The position numbers and the translations under genes were made by a program. This document shows, piece after piece, positions 10,948-56,763 of a stretch of DNA of 64,000 bases. The notes beneath the pieces are model-generated. The model ran no database searches and was not told the origin of the DNA. It was given only the letters and a program-made list of their open reading frames with translations. The DNA is from a virus (lineage: Duplodnaviria; Caudoviricetes). The stretch lies in IMG/VR virus record IMGVR_UViG_3300020151_001109, positions 35,535-99,534 of that record; one strand, written 5' to 3'. Numbering within the stretch: the first letter of the stretch is position 1; each line of letters starts with the position of its first letter.

Positions 10948-11200
10948 TATTGAGTATTCAGACTATCCGTTTAACGGAACTCAGCTATGTAATGATTTAA
11001 ATTCTAATCTTTTCTTTCCTGAGGAGTACACCGACCCAGAGGCACTTAGAGAAGCTAAAAGCATTTGTTCTTCTTGTCCGCTCGTTAATCAATGCCTGGA
11101 GTACGCCATAAAGACTCCGTGGCTAGACGGAATTTGGGGCGGAACCACTCCTCGTCAAAGAATACGAATGCGTGGAGCTAAAAATAGGGCTAATAGATGA
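10937..11200 (+). CDS. whiB: WhiB family transcription factor (copy 1)
   Basis: C..LFFP..AKSICSSCP...CLEYA...GIWGGTTPRQR; ATG at 10937. Confidence 0.92.
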   Translation: MELNIEYSDYPFNGTQLCNDLNSNLFFPEEYTDPEALREAKSICSSCPLVNQCLEYAIKTPWLDGIWGGTTPRQRIRMRGAKNRANR

Positions 11201-21607: not shown

Positions 21608-21925
21608 TTGTCAGACGTTAACAACCCGTCTTGGGCTTGGAGATATGAAGCAAAGTGTCGAGGAGAAGACACTGAGATATTCTTCCCACCACGGGATAAA
21701 AAATTATACAAACCCATAGCTGACTCAGCTAAGGCAATTTGCTACGGTCGAGACGGCAGGCCCCCCTGCCCCGTAAGAAAGCAGTGCCTAAAAGAGTCTA
21801 TTAAGAATGATGAGCTTCATGGTATCTTTGGTGGCATGAGCCATCGGGAACGAAACGCTCTTAAACGAAAGTACACCAAACTGGGATATACCTTGGAAAA
21901 ATGGCTAGAGGAGAAGGAAAAATAA
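21608..21925 (+). CDS. whiB: WhiB family transcription factor (copy 2)
   Basis: AKCRGEDTEIFFP..AKAIC..CPVRKQC..GIFGGMSHRER. Confidence 0.92.
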   Translation: MSDVNNPSWAWRYEAKCRGEDTEIFFPPRDKKLYKPIADSAKAICYGRDGRPPCPVRKQCLKESIKNDELHGIFGGMSHRERNALKRKYTKLGYTLEKWLEEKEK

Positions 21926-50242: not shown

Positions 50243-50554
50243 TTATCCTGTTTTTCTTCGGATTTCTAACCTTTGTTCTTCGGTTAAACCACCCCAGATA
50301 CCATAATCTTGATGGGTATCAAGAGCAAATTGCCTACACTTTTCCATTACAGGACACGCATTGCAATAAGAGACAGCCAACTCTATACGTCGAGTTTTTT
50401 CTGGCCCTCGTTCTAGTTCCTCATAGAAAAATACCTCCGAGTTTTTTAAGTCATTGCATAAGCCTTTTTCTTGCCACGCCCAGTTGTCATAAATGGGATT
50501 TGGCATATGCTTACTAAATTGACTAGGAGTATAAGCTTCTTTCTTTCTTGGCAT
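50243..50554 (-). CDS. whiB: WhiB family transcription factor (copy 3, WhiB3-like)
   Basis: W.WQEKGLC..VFF..ERG..CNACPV..CRQFAL...YGIWGGLTEEQR. Confidence 0.93.
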   Translation of the reverse strand: MPRKKEAYTPSQFSKHMPNPIYDNWAWQEKGLCNDLKNSEVFFYEELERGPEKTRRIELAVSYCNACPVMEKCRQFALDTHQDYGIWGGLTEEQRLEIRRKTG

Positions 50555-50695
50555 TGAACCTCCTTGGACATGAGTAATGAGCCGTTTAGCCTTGTCATGC
50601 TCAGGACAGGAAGCAGATATACCCCGATGCTTACGGGACGTGTTTTACCTTAGGTCTCGTCAGACCAAAGACACTCCTCCTTCTAGAGTGCGCCG

Positions 50696-50769
50696 TGCGC
50701 TGTGTAGGACTTGAACCTACGACGACCGAATTATGAGTTCGGGGCTCTAACCAACTGAGCTAACAGCGC
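50696..50769 (-). tRNA. tRNA with CAT anticodon (Ile2-lysidine or elongator Met); CCA not encoded
   Basis: GCGCTGT TAGCTCAGTTGGTTAGAGC, CCGAA-CTCATAA-TTCGG, GTAGG-TTCAAGT-CCTAC, ACAGCGC-A. Confidence 0.92.
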
Positions 50770-51350: not shown

Positions 51351-51857
51351 TTACTTAGCTCGTTTTGCTGTGCGCCACATGTGGGCATTTTCTGATTTAA
51401 CACCTATTGCAGTGAGTCCCATCTCAACTAATACATCGTCAATGTGGAACTTTAACTTCTCTAAGTCTTTAACGTCAAGCCTGACTAGGCAAGATGTGTC
51501 AAAGTCTTGGACAACGAGGAAGGCTGTGTTGTCTGTTTTACACCCTAATATGTATCCTGATTCTTTTCTGCATAGATCGCTTGATATGGTGTATTGACCT
51601 TCGGCAAGCAACTTATGTCGTGTAAAGGCATCTAGTAACGGAGTGTAACTGTCTTTGGAGCGGGCTTTGTTTGTGTTGGAGTTGGCTAACTTAATAGCCT
51701 CATCTTCGTGCTTAGTAACCGGATCTGATTCGACTTCTGGCACGGCATCTAACTTGGCTTTAGAGTCTTTGATTACGTCAGGGTTTGAATTGATATCTTC
51801 TAACTCTTCTGCAATTAACTCGTTTACTTTGCGGGGTGTTGTTTTCTTTTTAACCAC
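51351..51857 (-). CDS. Hypothetical protein
   Basis: 168-aa ORF in the leftward block. Confidence 0.55.
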   Translation of the reverse strand: MVKKKTTPRKVNELIAEELEDINSNPDVIKDSKAKLDAVPEVESDPVTKHEDEAIKLANSNTNKARSKDSYTPLLDAFTRHKLLAEGQYTISSDLCRKESGYILGCKTDNTAFLVVQDFDTSCLVRLDVKDLEKLKFHIDDVLVEMGLTAIGVKSENAHMWRTAKRAK

Positions 51858-51992
51858 GACGACTCTTCAATACTGTTACTACTGCTTTAGTGATTGCCAA
51901 TATAATGATAGTCACTAATAGAGTATCGATTGAGCCATCAGATAGGTCGAGATTGATTGTCATACCTTACCTTTCTACTTGATGGTTGTTGG

Positions 51993-52097
51993 AGACAGAG
52001 AAGGTATACCCAATACGCTGAGAGATGTAACGGATTTGCCCTCTGTACCGAGCAGGAATCATTGTCATGTTGGATCACGTGTAGACCTTCTCTGCCT
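51993..52097. ncRNA. Stem-closed non-coding cassette
   Basis: AGACAGAGAAGGT / ACCTTCTCTGCCT arms with nested inner helices. Confidence 0.45.
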
Positions 52098-52267
52098 AAA
52101 GATAAGAATCAGAATAAGTCGGCACTTGTCAAATACAGCTCCTCTAGCTTTTAATGCACATTCCTTCGAGTTCTGTATCTCAAGCCTATGTGGTCCGCGT
52201 AATTACCACGGTACTAAGTTCTTACACACCACTTGAGTCCTAGTTGATTCCTACCCTTTATCTGTCG

Positions 52268-52496
52268 AGAGACAGATAGGGAGCGCACTTACTATAAATG
52301 AATCTGTATGTATTCGTGAGGTTCTTCAAAGATGCATCTTTAATTACCGCCAGAAGTAACACATCTACTCAGCGTATATGCTCTGTTACCAAGTAGAAAC
52401 ACTCTTCCTTTTGCATGAATACACAGGCAAACCGCAAAGGTCTCTGACAGATGCGGTATCGATATTTACCTGTAAGTGCGCTTCCTACCTGCCTCT
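52268..52496. ncRNA. Stem-closed non-coding cassette
   Basis: 25-nt arms AGAGACAGATAGGGAGCGCACTTAC / GTAAGTGCGCTTCCTACCTGCCTCT; folded ~180-nt insert. Confidence 0.55.
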
Positions 52497-52602
52497 ATTT
52501 ATGTTCTTTCATATGATTTTGTAGGGTGAGATATGCAAAGGAAGAGCGAACTTCAATCTCTTTTTTGCATACCTCACACACTACTACCCTATTGCTAGGC
52601 AT
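52495..52602 (-). CDS. 35-aa single C2H2 zinc-finger microprotein (not in ORF track)
   Basis: MPSNRVVVCEVCKKEIEVRSSFAYLTLQNHMKEHK; TAATG coupling to 52602-52874. Confidence 0.6.
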   Translation of the reverse strand: MPSNRVVVCEVCKKEIEVRSSFAYLTLQNHMKEHK

Positions 52603-52874
52603 TAATAAGTTCTTTCAGCAAAACGATTAGCAGCATCGTTTATATTGTCGAAATATTCTCCCCATACACAAGAGCCGGTAGTATGATTGTAAGTCCATAC
52701 TACAAATGGGTGATAGGTAGATTCTGGGGCATAGCATAGGATTGTGTCACAATCCGTATTAGATGACTTTAGATTAAGAATCATAGCGCCTGTAGAGACG
52801 CCGCCATCGCCTTGCAACACTGTGCCAATCTTGATGGTCACAATGGTATTTTTAGGGGTCATTTTGTAATCCAC
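52602..52874 (-). CDS. Hypothetical protein
   Basis: HPFVVW.......WGEYF.....A...F.ER motif. Confidence 0.6.
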   Translation of the reverse strand: MDYKMTPKNTIVTIKIGTVLQGDGGVSTGAMILNLKSSNTDCDTILCYAPESTYHPFVVWTYNHTTGSCVWGEYFDNINDAANRFAERTY

Positions 52875-53068
52875 ACTCCTTGTTTTTTATCTAGAACGTG
52901 TTCCTGAATCACCCAGTCGCACTCTTCCCATCGGATTTGATCATCCATTATTGGGGCGATTTTGTCAATGAACTGATTCATGAACTCTTCAGCTTGCTTT
53001 TTGTTTTTCGCCTTGATTTCAATTATTGGGATTGAAAGGTCGGTCGAATAGTATTTCTCTTGACTCAC
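52859..53068 (-). CDS. Hypothetical protein
   Basis: AAGGGA SD before GTG (VSQEKYY). Confidence 0.5.
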   Translation of the reverse strand: MSQEKYYSTDLSIPIIEIKAKNKKQAEEFMNQFIDKIAPIMDDQIRWEECDWVIQEHVLDKKQGVWITK

Positions 53069-53112
53069 TGCATTTCCCTTCTGGCTGGCTGGTTGTTTGT
53101 GTTGGGGAAGCA

Positions 53113-53265
53113 TTACGGGCAATTACATATGCCGTATTGACACTCATAGTTTTTGAGGGCTTCAGAAGCCGTGAAACCATTGAGCCGTTCTTGCGCAATG
53201 AATAGGTCTTTCTCCAACTGCGCTATTGGATTTAGTGGGGTGGTTTTTTCTGTTTCCATTTCCAT
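53113..53265 (-). CDS. 50-aa hypothetical protein (not in ORF track)
   Basis: Ends CQYGICNCP. Confidence 0.35.
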   Translation of the reverse strand: MEMETEKTTPLNPIAQLEKDLFIAQERLNGFTASEALKNYECQYGICNCP

Positions 53266-53290
53266 CCTTACACTAGGACTTACCTCTGGG

Positions 53291-53575
53291 TTGAGATAAG
53301 TAGGAGATACACTGAATTACATACGGAATTACGGCGAGGCTCGCTCTCCGGTGATCTCTTGCATCGTTGATTTCTGCTTATAGTCGCGCATCTCAATAAG
53401 CTCAACGAACAGCGTGAGAGGGCTAACATTACCCGTGGGGTGTCTCTAAACCTCACGCTGGCCATCCAGATTACTTCTTCCATACTTCCCATCACTCCGA
53501 TATAGCCTCCAAAGTGATTTGTGTATCCTCAGTTATAATCGTGCTTCTCTCCAGTGTATCTCCTGCCTATCTCAA
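53291..53575. ncRNA. Stem-closed non-coding cassette with AGATACA arms
   Basis: TTGAGATAAGTAGGAGATACACTG / CAGTGTATCTCCTGCCTATCTCAA; inner helices GAGGCT/AGCCTC, CAGCGTGAG/CTCACGCTG, GCTTAT/ATAAGC. Confidence 0.6.
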
Positions 53576-53844
53576 ATCTTTTTCGGGGGAAATTTAGGGT
53601 GAGCAGTTTGTATTCCTCATACTCAGGAGGCGTCCCAAATAGCAGAAGGCCGGATCCGTGGTCTGGAACCCGCTGCGTTGGGCAACTATGGTGCGGGGGG
53701 ATGTTTGTGTTGGCTAGCCTTGTGATAATGCGTCGTCAATGCCCATACGATGAGCAAGACATATCAGGCAGGCGTAGGTGTCGTGGGTAGCGGGAACGCG
53801 GGTAAGATGTAGCCTAATAGATGCTACAAGTTCTTTATGTGTTG

Positions 53845-54045
53845 CTACTGCCACGACTCATCTACACAGTCTGTAACATATCGGTCTGTATAAATGACAA
53901 TCTGTCCATCATTATCAATCTCTGAACCACAGTAGTCTGCAAGTTCGGAGATCATATAATCGACAGTGATAAGTCTGCGGGAGATATACCAGGTGATGCC
54001 CGCAGTGAGCATCATAAGAAGCATAGTAAATCCGTTGAAGAACAT
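53845..54045 (-). CDS. Small membrane-anchored protein
   Basis: N-terminal TM segment. Confidence 0.5.
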   Translation of the reverse strand: MFFNGFTMLLMMLTAGITWYISRRLITVDYMISELADYCGSEIDNDGQIVIYTDRYVTDCVDESWQ

Positions 54046-54049
54046 ACTA

Positions 54050-54214
54050 TTATGAGCCTGACTTCAGACGAGGATTGGGGATGCGAATCATCTTGTGCCT
54101 GTTGCGTCGTTCATTGAACACCACAGTCCAGATGTATTTCTTCCAAGCCTTTCCGTTAGGACGATTTGCTCCTGTTTGAGCCTTCACAGGAGCTGGACTT
54201 GATTTCTTAGCCAC
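54050..54214 (-). CDS. 54-aa basic protein
   Basis: AAGGAGG SD then GTG at 54214 (track start 54406 unlikely). Confidence 0.6.
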   Translation of the reverse strand: MAKKSSPAPVKAQTGANRPNGKAWKKYIWTVVFNERRNRHKMIRIPNPRLKSGS

Positions 54215-54297
54215 TTGCCCTCCTTTATTAGGGGGCAGGCAACAAGGATTATCTTTACCCTGTATCTCAGGAACCTTGATGCCCGCCGATACTCCGC

Positions 54298-54394
54298 CGA
54301 GATGGGGAGTGAGAGATACACAGGCTAGAAAGCCATACAGTAAGAAGATGATAAAAACTGTATGGAACCTGTGTATCTTTCGCCACCCATATCG
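54298..54394. ncRNA. Stem-closed cassette with AGATACA arms
   Basis: GTGAGAGATACACAGG / CCTGTGTATCTTTCGC; inner CCATACAGT/ACTGTATGG. Confidence 0.55.
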
Positions 54395-54429
54395 AAGCCA
54401 GTCCACGATATTGAAATGGAAAAGGCAAT

Positions 54430-54467
54430 AAAAAAAAGGGGAGACCGTAATTACACAGTCTCCCCTT
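54430..54467 (-). terminator. Intrinsic terminator (leftward)
   Basis: GGGGAGAC..GTCTCCCC stem plus 8-T tract on the minus strand. Confidence 0.8.
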
Positions 54468-54468
54468 C

Positions 54469-55099
54469 AGACATACTAAGTGTGTAATGAAACACGGGCT
54501 GGAAGGTTGAAGCAGGTTATTTACACTTACCTGACGAGTGTTGATAACCAATTGAACCAGTGATAACTATTGTTAGAGTCAGGGCCATCGAATTGGCTAG
54601 TAGCAATAGAAACGAACGCACTACCCTATATGTGTTATTACACCCCTTAGTATGCCTTCCACTCTCAGATAGAGAGTGAGAGATACATAGTCTGTCTTGT
54701 AGCGAGAACGCCCAACTAACCTACGGGACTAGCCCTAGCCTATGTATCTTCCACCAACTATCTAATAGATACAGAGAGATACATAGTCTCTCCCAGATGC
54801 GGGTATTCCAAAGGCACTAGCGTTTTAGTAAGAACTAAGGAGGCTAGTGAGTCTGCAACCTTACAGAAATGAATCCGTTATAGGTTCGTTCCAACACCTT
54901 GAATAGCACCGACTGAGTAAGCCGCTTCACAGCATAGGTCTCAGAGGCTATGTATCTTCCTGCAACTACCTGATAACAAGCAGTCGAACCCCTCCCAAGC
55001 CTGGTGTTACAACTTGGGAGTGGTTTGCCTTCCCTGATAGTGGCTAAACAGCCATAACCAGACAGGGGTTTTATCCCCTGCCTGATTAGAGTGGTTTAG
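54469..55099. ncRNA. Tandem array of five stem-closed elements (54469-54657, 54667-54763, 54767-54971, ~54986-55026, 55044-55099)
   Basis: No credible ORF; abutting inverted repeats; exact direct repeats GAGAGATACATAGTCT (54678, 54774) and CTATGTATCTTCC (54740, 54948). Confidence 0.6.
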
Positions 55100-55117
55100 A
55101 CTCCTGCCGTGAGAGAA

Positions 55118-55684
55118 TTACTCAGAGAATGAACCCTTGAGTAATAGATAGATAGGGAACAAGAGGTTCTTAGCCTCTTGATCCATCTCTGCACCTAGTG
55201 AACTCTCCAACGCTGCTTTGAACGCTGGAGTAGTTGAAGCAAGTGATGCCGCTGCTGCTTCTTTAGCAGCCTTGAGAGCAGCCGCCTTCTCAGCGACAGC
55301 CGAAGCCTTGGCAGACAAGATGTCTACCGCGTCTGGGTTGCCGATGAGGGGCTTGATGTCTGTCCAGTCTACCTTTGTGAAGGCAGCAGCAATCTCAGCG
55401 TCTACGCCTGTGGCAATAAGAGCGCCGAGATAGATTGGCCGTTGGTAACCATTGGTGAGGAACTTCTTATCAACAGACTCTGTGTCTGTCTTATCACCAC
55501 GATTGGTCATAGCATCGACGACCAACTGACGAGTTGAAGCAAGTAATTCATCGACGCTACCGCCGTTGATAATAAAGTCCGCTACATTGCGGCGAACTTC
55601 TGGGGCAGCGAGGTTGGCATTACCTGCAACGAAAACACTATTTGACACGAGGTCAAGGGTGTTCGTCATTGTTTGTGTTGACAT
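55118..55684 (-). CDS. Hypothetical 188-aa protein, first gene of the leftward block
   Basis: TAGGTAG SD-like; biased codon usage; Ala-rich helical C-terminus. Confidence 0.7.
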   Translation of the reverse strand: MSTQTMTNTLDLVSNSVFVAGNANLAAPEVRRNVADFIINGGSVDELLASTRQLVVDAMTNRGDKTDTESVDKKFLTNGYQRPIYLGALIATGVDAEIAAAFTKVDWTDIKPLIGNPDAVDILSAKASAVAEKAAALKAAKEAAAASLASTTPAFKAALESSLGAEMDQEAKNLLFPIYLLLKGSFSE

Positions 55685-56196
55685 AACTACCTAACTAGGT
55701 CATACATACACCACCGCCTTGGTGGGTAGAGGTATGCCTGTGCGTGGCTAGGAATTGAACGCATAAGGGATATGCCGTGAAGTTTATTCTCCACACTAGA
55801 GGGTAATAGATACCCCGCCACCAGACACACGCTAAGGCAGGAAGAACGGCAAGAAGCCACATTGGTATTTATTTACTAGAAAATAAGTAAAAAAAATCCA
55901 CACGGATATTGCCCAAAATCTGGGCAGACTTATCCTGTGTGGTGTGGCGGGCTACATCATCACCGCCGTTCATTATGTATGGTATTGACCCCCGATAATG
56001 ACCCCTATGGGTTAGATGACCTTTATGAACCTTATCGCCAGGTGAGACAGGAAGCCATGACCTATATGGGGAAGGCAGTGGCCAAAAATTTTCAAGGTCG
56101 GGTGTATCTCAGGCAGTGGCTAAGGTCAAATTAGCCGGGGGGCTCAATGGCCGGGTATGGTATGCTTTACGGGCATCCAAACGAGAGGGCTTCACA

Positions 56197-56763
56197 TTGA
56201 CTACACTTGTGGCTATTCAGGGTAAAGGCTGGTCCGTCATTGGATGTGATTCACGGGCATCAGATGAAGATGGTCGTTTTATGGAGTTAGCAACATCAAA
56301 GGTCATCGATAACTCAGGTGTATTGATTGCTGTCTCTGGAGCATCTCGTGGTGGAAACATTACACAGTTCGGATGGAAACCTCCTAAGCCACGTGCAGGA
56401 GAAGATCTAGATGTGTTCATGACTAAGAAGTTCATCCCTAGTATGCGAAAAGCTTTTCAAGAAGCAGGCTATGAAGGTAAGGAAGACGGAGACTCAGCAT
56501 TCCAAGACTCTAATCTCATCGTCTCAGTAAGAGGAACTCTTTATCCGATCTTTAACGATTACTCTTGGGATAGAGAAGCCCGTAACGTCTACTATGCTGG
56601 ATCAGGTGGCGATATCGCACTTGGAGCCTTAGAAGCGCTAGACTATTCAAAAGCTAAGACGCCCGAAGCTGCTGAAAAAATTCTACGTCGTGCAATTGAA
56701 GCGGCGTGTAAGCATGACATCTATTCAGGTGGAGAGATTCACACCTTCGTACAAGAGGCGTAA
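56197..56763 (+). CDS. Proteasome-beta/HslV-like Ntn threonine protease
   Basis: (M)TTLVAI...CDSR...K...SG...AGSGG..ALGAL...AI..A..HDIYSGG; TTG start at 56197 puts Thr1 at the N-terminus. Confidence 0.85.
   Translation: MTTLVAIQGKGWSVIGCDSRASDEDGRFMELATSKVIDNSGVLIAVSGASRGGNITQFGWKPPKPRAGEDLDVFMTKKFIPSMRKAFQEAGYEGKEDGDSAFQDSNLIVSVRGTLYPIFNDYSWDREARNVYYAGSGGDIALGALEALDYSKAKTPEAAEKILRRAIEAACKHDIYSGGEIHTFVQEA

Follow-up and report, generated by a model that had tools for sequence, protein, structure and literature searches.

A phage-only family of RNA cassettes with exchangeable structured cargoes on a shared clamp stem

Inverted repeats that stay constant around changing interiors raise the question of what the repeats do and what they carry. 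Such repeats lie in a 64-kb window of viral DNA (the whole stretch analysed here, which forms the last 64 kb of the complete 99,534-bp IMG/VR virus record IMGVR_UViG_3300020151_001109), in a gap of about 650 nucleotides (nt) between the stop codon of a gene at 55118–55684, encoding a protein of 188 amino acids (aa), and a leftward terminator. The gap contains no open reading frame (ORF) of more than 39 aa. A sequence-only reading of the locus described stem-closed cassettes with shared arms and variable inserts, and proposed that they are cut from a polycistronic transcript as small RNAs, possibly guides or decoys partnered with the adjacent 188-aa protein. Here we report that the cassettes very likely belong to a real, selected RNA structure family with swappable, conserved cargoes, as judged from comparison of sequences across many phages. 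Our analysis further suggests, with a probability of about 50%, that they act as a stalk for processing and stabilisation, a probable target of host RNase III, on which exchangeable small RNAs are mounted.

Clamp stem, covariation and strand

A repeat search gives three inverted-repeat pairs, cassettes c1, c2 and c3 (Table 1), which are the three cassettes with shared arms that had been described before; their left arms are mutually alike, as are their right arms (repeat families D1 and D2). The stretch 54468–54662, which had been left undescribed, is a fourth cassette, X, whose outer 3′ arm is replaced in the window by the terminator. At least four further, more diverged cassettes occur in the window beyond c1–c3, and all window copies are confined to the leftward small-gene region at 51.9–55.0 kb. 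A 10-nt core of the arm occurs three times in forward and three times in reverse orientation in the whole 99,534-bp record, always at this locus, with no occurrence of a reversed-pattern control, and a 13-mer of the arm, with two mismatches allowed, is matched 10 times where 2.6 matches are expected. On both strands, folding of the 838-nt stretch is much more favourable than that of shuffled sequences (z = −7.6 and −8.9).

Relatives were collected by pattern scans with the arm core, which returned 16 and 18 IMG/VR contigs and 31 metagenome contigs, and 55 unique cassettes were gathered in total from viral and metagenome contigs (labelled here by L-numbers). The arms recur beside homologues of the 188-aa protein, as had been anticipated: contigs L003 and L010–L015, which encode members of this family, carry the same arms downstream of that gene. 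The arms are absent from prokaryotes, with two chance matches only among 185,579 species (one genome each), and complete viral genomes hold one or two canonical copies. A blastn comparison of the region with 50,697 phage records gave no match. Rfam 15 at gathering scores recognized only transfer RNAs (tRNAs) in the window and 11 loci, and Rfam E-value searches of the window and 15 short contigs returned only chance-level matches to microRNA-type hairpins. The cassette family occurs only in phages, which exchange it, and is uncatalogued, although pieces of it may be among the roughly 10,000 anonymous candidate RNAs of a viral collection built from IMG/VR (PMC10690425). These searches, together with the inverted orientation of the repeats and the conservation of the inserts, agree with the earlier view that the element is neither a terminator nor a CRISPR array, and place it outside the Rfam families.

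We aligned the arms of 24 sense-oriented cassettes (alignment A2). The resulting clamp stem has 27 pairs, arranged as an 8-bp lower helix, a 2×2 internal loop, a 5-bp middle helix, a 1×1 mismatch and an 11-bp upper helix, and the 1×1 position, usually A opposite C, is unpaired in 23 of the 24 cassettes. Standard pairs fill 86.6% of the cells of the stem, as compared with 34–55% when the partner arm is slid out of register. The covariation in homologues that the sequence-only reading had asked for is present: 12 stem pairs are altered on both sides, and none of 500 shuffles reaches the observed values. The arm variants that carry one particular cargo type (type I, below) add further compensated changes in the upper helix.

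The arms also indicate which strand is structured. Read in the sense orientation, the stem contains 150 G–U pairs against 68 A–C oppositions, the latter being the would-be G–U pairs of the opposite strand, and in 43 of 52 cassettes the arms are more stable as sense than as antisense RNA, with a mean gain of 3.8 kcal/mol. The main signal favouring the opposite strand is the conserved A–C position, which we take to be an internal loop that has been conserved. The cassettes share their sense strand with the flanking genes and the terminator. The G–U bias and the arm stability agree with this orientation of genes and terminator, and we assign the RNA structure to the gene-sense strand, and the description of a constant scaffold with variable cargo stands in the form of a structured sense-strand RNA.

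An alternative that we regard as unlikely places the function in the DNA: the arms would be protein-binding or promoter-like sites, or homology handles for the shuffling of small genes, and RNA folding would be incidental. The upper-stem sequence is nearly invariant, and cassette number varies between near-identical phages with breakpoints inside the repeated arms. Moreover, the leftward region around the cassettes is a hyperplastic small-gene region, in which L003 has two Cys-rich ORFs in place of cassettes. The PeSL elements of T4-type phages, which consist of a sigma-70 promoter and a terminator hairpin, are known to mediate such shuffling; like the cassettes, they are repeated in hyperplastic small-gene regions, where their mutual homology drives the insertion, deletion and replacement of modules between relatives (PMC2839356, PMC4122927). 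Unlike PeSLs, however, the cassettes lack a consensus promoter, have long-range arms around a cargo and are selected at the RNA level: pairs that are G–U on one strand only keep pairing (the 150 against 68 above), the sense strand is the more stable, and compensatory changes are found in cargo helices as well as in the 12 stem pairs. The interval 51500–56300 holds three weak sigma-70-like sites, where eight would be expected from shuffles, and one of these (54375–54348, 9/12) overlaps c1. Recombination within arms is expected of any repeated sequence and is no function by itself.

Cargo types and their exchange

Clustering of the cargoes of the 55 cassettes reveals at least 15 recurring, internally structured types of 28–260 nt. 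In type I, the invariant unpaired blocks ACUGAG and GUGUA flank a covarying hairpin, and in type II, ACUG and CUAUGAGG flank a hairpin with compensatory changes; types III–VIII and several singletons complete the set. The first and last three cargo bases of types I and II can pair on reading the sequences, a pairing that the consensus fold does not predict. A pattern scan finds type I only within cassettes, with arm variants that covary.

The inserts at the locus had been called unrelated, and they do differ from cassette to cassette, but each belongs to a cargo type that is conserved in other phages. The c2 cargo appears by eye to be related to cargoes of L016 and L028. An 80% identical copy of the c3 cargo occurs in L034 (4182–4321), enclosed by variant arms and upstream of a different gene, while the X cargo is 87–88% identical in L010, L011 and L039, has a further copy in L066, and folds in alignment to −55 kcal/mol as one multi-helix RNA. 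In the phages that share the c3 or X cargo, the neighbouring protein either reaches about 55% identity at most or has no detectable homology. The 237-nt cargo of the cassette at 53291–53575 shows compensatory substitutions in a 7-bp helix relative to L003; a coding role for it was rejected, as an overlapping 71-aa frame is broken by insertions and deletions in L003.

The cargo types match no Rfam family, and readings of types I–III as kink-turns or as hammerhead, twister or pistol ribozymes did not fit when compared by eye rather than by formal tests. As small structured RNAs that occur in phages only, with a constant closing stem and differing interiors, they resemble species 1 and 2 of T4 and the stable RNAs of T5, from phage tRNA regions, but the cassettes lie in mRNA leaders near ribosome-binding sites rather than between tRNA genes. 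The cargoes are candidates for new functional RNA classes.

Cargoes and whole cassettes are exchanged at fixed sites. At the c1 site, an alignment of four contigs (A5) has conserved flanks and arms around three unrelated cargoes. Contigs L010 and L011 are 96–99% identical, yet differ by whole cassettes at two sites, and one of these differences is a clean 146-nt insertion that lacks a target duplication and ends in the repeated 3′-arm sequence. The window has c3, c2 and X where L003, at 92% identity, has two Cys-rich genes and one other cassette. Furthermore, four different cargo types are found ahead of one and the same downstream leader. The same-site swaps and whole-cassette differences therefore indicate that recombination within the arms moves both cargo and cassettes, irrespective of which gene they serve. 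A 14-nt leader, AGTAGAAAGCAGGT, located after the local hairpin that follows the stem (hairpin B, below) and before the downstream start, recurs in L017, L018, L035, L053, L054, L059, L062 and L067, and may itself be a start-associated motif.

Terminal inverted repeats, variable interiors and presence/absence polymorphism are also what a miniature inverted-repeat transposable element (MITE), or another site of the transposon or integron type, would show after insertion into a phage. The Correia elements of Neisseria are such repeats: they are co-transcribed with neighbouring genes, and their hairpin can be bound, and cleaved or protected, by RNase III, altering the expression of the adjacent gene (PMC2649163). 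This explanation is largely refuted for the cassettes. Correia elements are chromosomal MITEs that occur in high copy, have a single core and show target duplications, whereas the cassettes are low-copy, phage-only and free of duplications, as the 146-nt insertion shows, and carry many cargoes. Their one or two canonical copies per complete genome, the clustering of the window copies at 51.9–55.0 kb and their absence from the 185,579 prokaryotic species argue against mobility of this kind, as does the conservation of the arms, which peaks at the inner end and not at the tips. The complete 99.5-kb record lacks an integrase (PF00589) and a reverse transcriptase (PF00078), and no Y1 transposase was found in the phage. 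Readings of the cassettes as retrons, integron attC sites or IS200-type ends were rejected on the same marker genes.

The proposal that the cargoes are guide or decoy RNAs working with the 188-aa protein draws on the adjacency of gene and array in the window, L003, L010–L015 and L026. We now consider it very improbable. Canonical cassettes with the same arms also adjoin first genes of other phages whose products, although analogous in position, have no detectable homology to the 188-aa family (hhalign probability 1%). The family itself is tiny: there are 11 homologues, and a profile search gives seven representative clusters. Its AlphaFold model is all-helical (predicted local distance difference test score, 81) and finds no fold match in the PDB or among viral structures, hence none to a nucleic-acid-binding fold; Pfam gives only a weak match to DUF7917, PHROGs nothing and the ESM Atlas only phage hypothetical proteins. 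The protein is a neighbour, not a demonstrated partner, of the cassettes. The cargoes, for their part, are conserved structured modules and not fast-changing spacers, and a scan of the seven window cargoes for antisense targets in the 64-kb window gave none above shuffles, which speaks against a guide function. A guide array of the CRISPR or TIGR type was likewise rejected: each insert is enclosed by inverted repeats, is conserved and has no target in the window, and the neighbouring protein is not conserved with the arms. We also considered a Ro60/Y-RNA arrangement, but the large neighbouring proteins are an AAA_5 ATPase and a vWA protein, and Pfam found no TROVE domain in the eight nearby proteins scanned.

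Hairpin B and a possible processing stalk

The position of the cassettes relative to genes is regular. A start codon behind a Shine–Dalgarno-like word lies within about 60 nt of the stem end in approximately 35 of 53 cassettes, and behind the remainder there is a further cassette, a ribosome-binding site of lesser strength or a leader of greater length. Many cassettes begin within about 10–25 nt of a T run or of a conserved C-rich box, so that transcription would have to read through into them or start immediately before them. The box, which reads CCCCGC or CCCCCG with a run of A or T behind it, is found about 10–30 nt upstream of many cassettes, including a site at 53575–53600 (minus strand) of the window and sites in L010, L011, L013, L015, L021, L022, L034, L035, L042 and L056, and is sometimes preceded by the 11-mer CAACACAAACA. 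It could be a phage-specific transcription signal, with a bearing on where cassette transcripts start. The cassettes would lie within polycistronic transcripts of the small-gene region, as the sequence-only reading had supposed, and their position suggests early expression.

The 3′ arm has a second partner. In 35 of 35 cassettes examined, its distal half can pair over about 5–8 bp with the segment that follows, forming a local hairpin (hairpin B), which has double-sided changes at three positions. In arrays, the 5′ arm of the neighbouring downstream cassette provides this segment, whereas in single cassettes the segment continues into the ribosome-binding site. The clamp stem and hairpin B compete for the same bases, and the long stem is much the stronger. 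Because the two mutually exclusive pairings both covary, a step that removes the 5′ arm seems to be needed, and cutting of the helix would be the simplest.

We therefore favour the following sequence of events. The long clamp stem would form first, during transcription, and would be cut by a double-strand-specific endonuclease, most likely host RNase III. The cut would free the cargo, on a stub of the stem, as a small stable RNA, and the upstream RNA product would end just after its terminator-like hairpin. The leftover 3′ arm would then refold with the downstream segment into a 5′-terminal hairpin beside the ribosome-binding site, which would protect and insulate the small-gene mRNA.

RNase III acts on uninterrupted RNA duplexes that span some two helical turns or more, in many cases with an internal loop where they are cut, and the clamp stem has the length and the internal loops of such a substrate (27 pairs with 2×2 and 1×1 loops). 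The cassettes are also located as RNase III sites are, in intergenic positions on the sense strand of presumed transcripts. A 5′-terminal hairpin beside a ribosome-binding site is a layout known to stabilise and insulate mRNAs. The T7 early RNA sites R0.3–R1.3 are RNase III processing hairpins in a polycistronic phage RNA, and resemble the cassettes in being long imperfect helices with conserved internal loops, placed between cistrons, with sister sites within a phage that are alike. The processing stalks of ribosomal RNA (rRNA) and the intervening sequences of 23S rRNA, which are excised by RNase III, share with them a helix that encloses a large variable interior. The cassettes differ from both in that one stem sequence extends across many phages and at least 15 conserved cargoes are exchanged as cassettes; cleavage, here, is what we infer from the two pairings.

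Several points weigh against such a stalk. The cassettes are related by descent and exchange, so that the shuffle statistics and Wilcoxon P values overstate independence, while the direction of the effects is clear. The pairs of hairpin B were tabulated from folds of single sequences, a method that leans towards finding this hairpin. The upper stem is conserved in sequence and not merely in pairing, with 18 invariant alignment columns; RNase III does not explain this invariance, and a sequence-specific protein, or frequent gene conversion or homogenisation by recombination, could be responsible. No RNase III gene was found in the phage record, and the host is known only as a probable actinobacterium, through WhiB genes. 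A plain processing site, moreover, would not be expected to need an elaborate cargo, and for none of the cargoes did the antisense scan of the window reveal a target, nor has a partner been found.

The exchange of cargoes at fixed sites, independently of the downstream gene, suggests that the cargo acts in trans, for instance in host takeover or counter-defence. A fuller version of this idea, which we put forward tentatively, is that early mRNA leaders of actinobacterial phages carry an exchangeable library of trans-acting small RNAs on a universal stalk, the cutting of which would both release the RNA and mature the small-gene mRNA. The repertoire would be reshuffled between co-infecting phages in host–phage conflict, and its members might be decoys or inhibitors of host defence or of takeover targets.

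A purely cis-acting leader, in which stem and hairpin B set the stability or translation of the small-gene mRNA and the cargo just extends or caps the helix, is conceivable, if rather doubtful. The cassettes sit just upstream of ribosome-binding sites, hairpin B abuts the Shine–Dalgarno sequence, and the 5′ arm, on reading the sequences, resembles the ribosome-binding region behind the cassette. Actinobacteriophages of two clusters provide a parallel, with start-associated sequences (SAS) and extended inverted repeats (ESAS) upstream of them in Cluster K mycobacteriophages (PMC3203893) and Cluster EF Microbacterium phages (PMC7302621). Like these, the cassettes are conserved, specific to actinobacteriophages, absent from host genomes and close to the ribosome-binding sites of some genes only, and like ESAS they include an imperfect inverted repeat around a variable spacer. 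ESAS repeats, however, are 17-bp imperfect repeats with spacers of mostly 4–13 bp, whose departures were found not to support RNA pairing, DNA-binding sites being favoured by the authors (PMC3203893), whereas the cassette arms are about 27 nt long, their spacers are structured RNAs of 28–260 nt and their pairing in RNA is supported by covariation. SAS is a conserved asymmetric motif at the ribosome-binding site, a few bases ahead of the start codon. In most cassettes the 3′ half of hairpin B, which is conserved, immediately precedes the Shine–Dalgarno sequence and so is placed upstream of the binding site rather than on it, and the 13-mer SAS consensus (PMC3203893) was not noticed in the sequences read, with no formal comparison or pattern search made. 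A leader acting in cis alone also accounts poorly for tandem arrays of two or three cassettes, among them the c3–c2–X array of the window, which ends at a terminator with no gene behind it. Neither invariant unpaired blocks nor conserved multi-helix folds of up to 237 nt would be needed to cap a helix, and different cargoes serve the same gene.

Two alternative, covarying partners of one arm, the 5′ arm and the downstream segment, are also the layout of a switch, with the cargo as a would-be aptamer, the clamp stem as its P1 helix and hairpin B as expression platform. Cargo type VI would suit such a riboswitch-like sensor, as it is always found upstream of one small membrane-protein family of about 35 aa (L021, L042, L056 and L064); it is the sole type with a fixed gene partner and may be a true cis-regulator. 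For the family as a whole we consider a sensor role quite improbable. The folds suggest that, at about 27 pairs, the stem has too great a stability to switch in response to a ligand, and the Shine–Dalgarno sequence appears, from the sequences, to be hidden in neither conformation. For most cargo types there is no fixed association with a gene family, as exemplified by the leader with four types and the site with three, and no known aptamer in Rfam was matched.

The locus, its neighbours and wider meaning

The features of the locus are collected in Table 1. The cassettes occupy the upstream end of a block of minus-strand genes that spans about 42.5–55.7 kb of the window and is headed by gene 55118–55684, with a divergent intergenic region in front. 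In the 3′ untranslated region (UTR) of this gene, the third hairpin has a loop with ACCAGG and is recognisable in distant relatives just ahead of the first cassette; L003 matches the whole region at 96% identity, and L010, L011 and L013 match the final 45 nt at about 80%. The gene for the 54-aa basic protein is conserved in L003, L045 and L065. Of the two probable diverged relatives of the cassettes, the element at 52268–52496 is 96% identical in L003 and reads as a purine-rich 5′ arm and a pyrimidine-rich 3′ arm followed by a local hairpin, and that at 51993–52097 precedes, by about 30 nt, the start of a gene for a 37-aa membrane protein.

Table 1 Cassettes and associated features of the window, in order along the sense (minus) strand
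Feature	Position	Strand	Arms	Description
188-aa gene	55118–55684	−		All-helical phage-only protein, first gene of leftward operon (ORF list)
3′ UTR of 188-aa gene	54976–55117	−		Three hairpins leading into first cassette (fold)
Cassette c3	54752–54985	−	54943–54975 (5′ on RNA) / 54759–54791 (3′); 33 nt, 76% complementary, spaced 151 nt (repeat search)	Cargo 54792–54942, about 150 nt
Cassette c2	54655–54772	−	54662–54693 / 54737–54768; 32 nt, 75% complementary, spaced 43 nt	Clamp stem around 43-nt cargo 54694–54736
Hairpin B of c2	54660–54678	−		Distal c2 3′ arm paired with start of next unit
Cassette X	54468–54662	−	Own long closing stem	Structured cargo of about 170 nt
Terminator	54435–54468	−		Intrinsic, leftward; 15-bp stem with 7 G–C pairs, T run
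Cassette c1	54298–54394	−	54298–54324 / 54368–54394; 27 nt, 81% complementary, spaced 43 nt	43-nt hairpin cargo 54325–54367 inside clamp stem
Small basic protein gene	54050–54214	−		54 aa, GTG start, strong ribosome-binding site; downstream of c1
Cassette	53291–53575	−	Related arms; 24 nt, 92% complementary	237-nt non-coding structured cargo
Probable diverged relative	52268–52496	−	25 nt, 88% complementary	179-nt cargo; family membership by eye only
Probable diverged relative	51993–52097	−	17 nt	71-nt cargo; family membership by eye only

Across the divergent intergenic region, a gene for an HslV/proteasome-like peptidase (56116–56763, plus strand) is the first of the rightward block and faces the 188-aa gene. 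A lone tRNA-Met (CAT) gene is found at the downstream end of the leftward region (50695–50769, minus strand), with no cassette abutting it. The two Cys-rich genes that stand in L003 (4730–4925 and 5070–5185) in the place of c3, c2 and X are small and zinc-ribbon-like, and the second of them is kept in L010, L011 and L015.

The 99.5-kb record as a whole encodes baseplate proteins, a DNA polymerase, a helicase, a ribonucleotide reductase and a CobS-like protein. It also encodes three WhiB-like proteins, at 50264–50476 (minus strand), about 10982–11167 and about 21638–21862 of the window. Because of these three proteins, and because this marker was present in the actinobacterium alone among 14 control genomes, the host of the phage is very probably an actinobacterium.

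Should the cassettes be merely leader hairpins, they would be a modest addition to the known signals of phage gene expression. If the stalk is a processing signal, it would provide a testable rule for how uncultured phages of freshwater type mature small early mRNAs while making small RNAs, and the swapping of cargoes at fixed sites is the pattern expected of accessory functions driven by conflict. In Actinobacteria, the stem and its hairpin could further find use as a natural part for insulating gene expression. The cassettes also offer an RNA-level reading of the start-associated repeats of actinobacteriophages, which have long gone unexplained.

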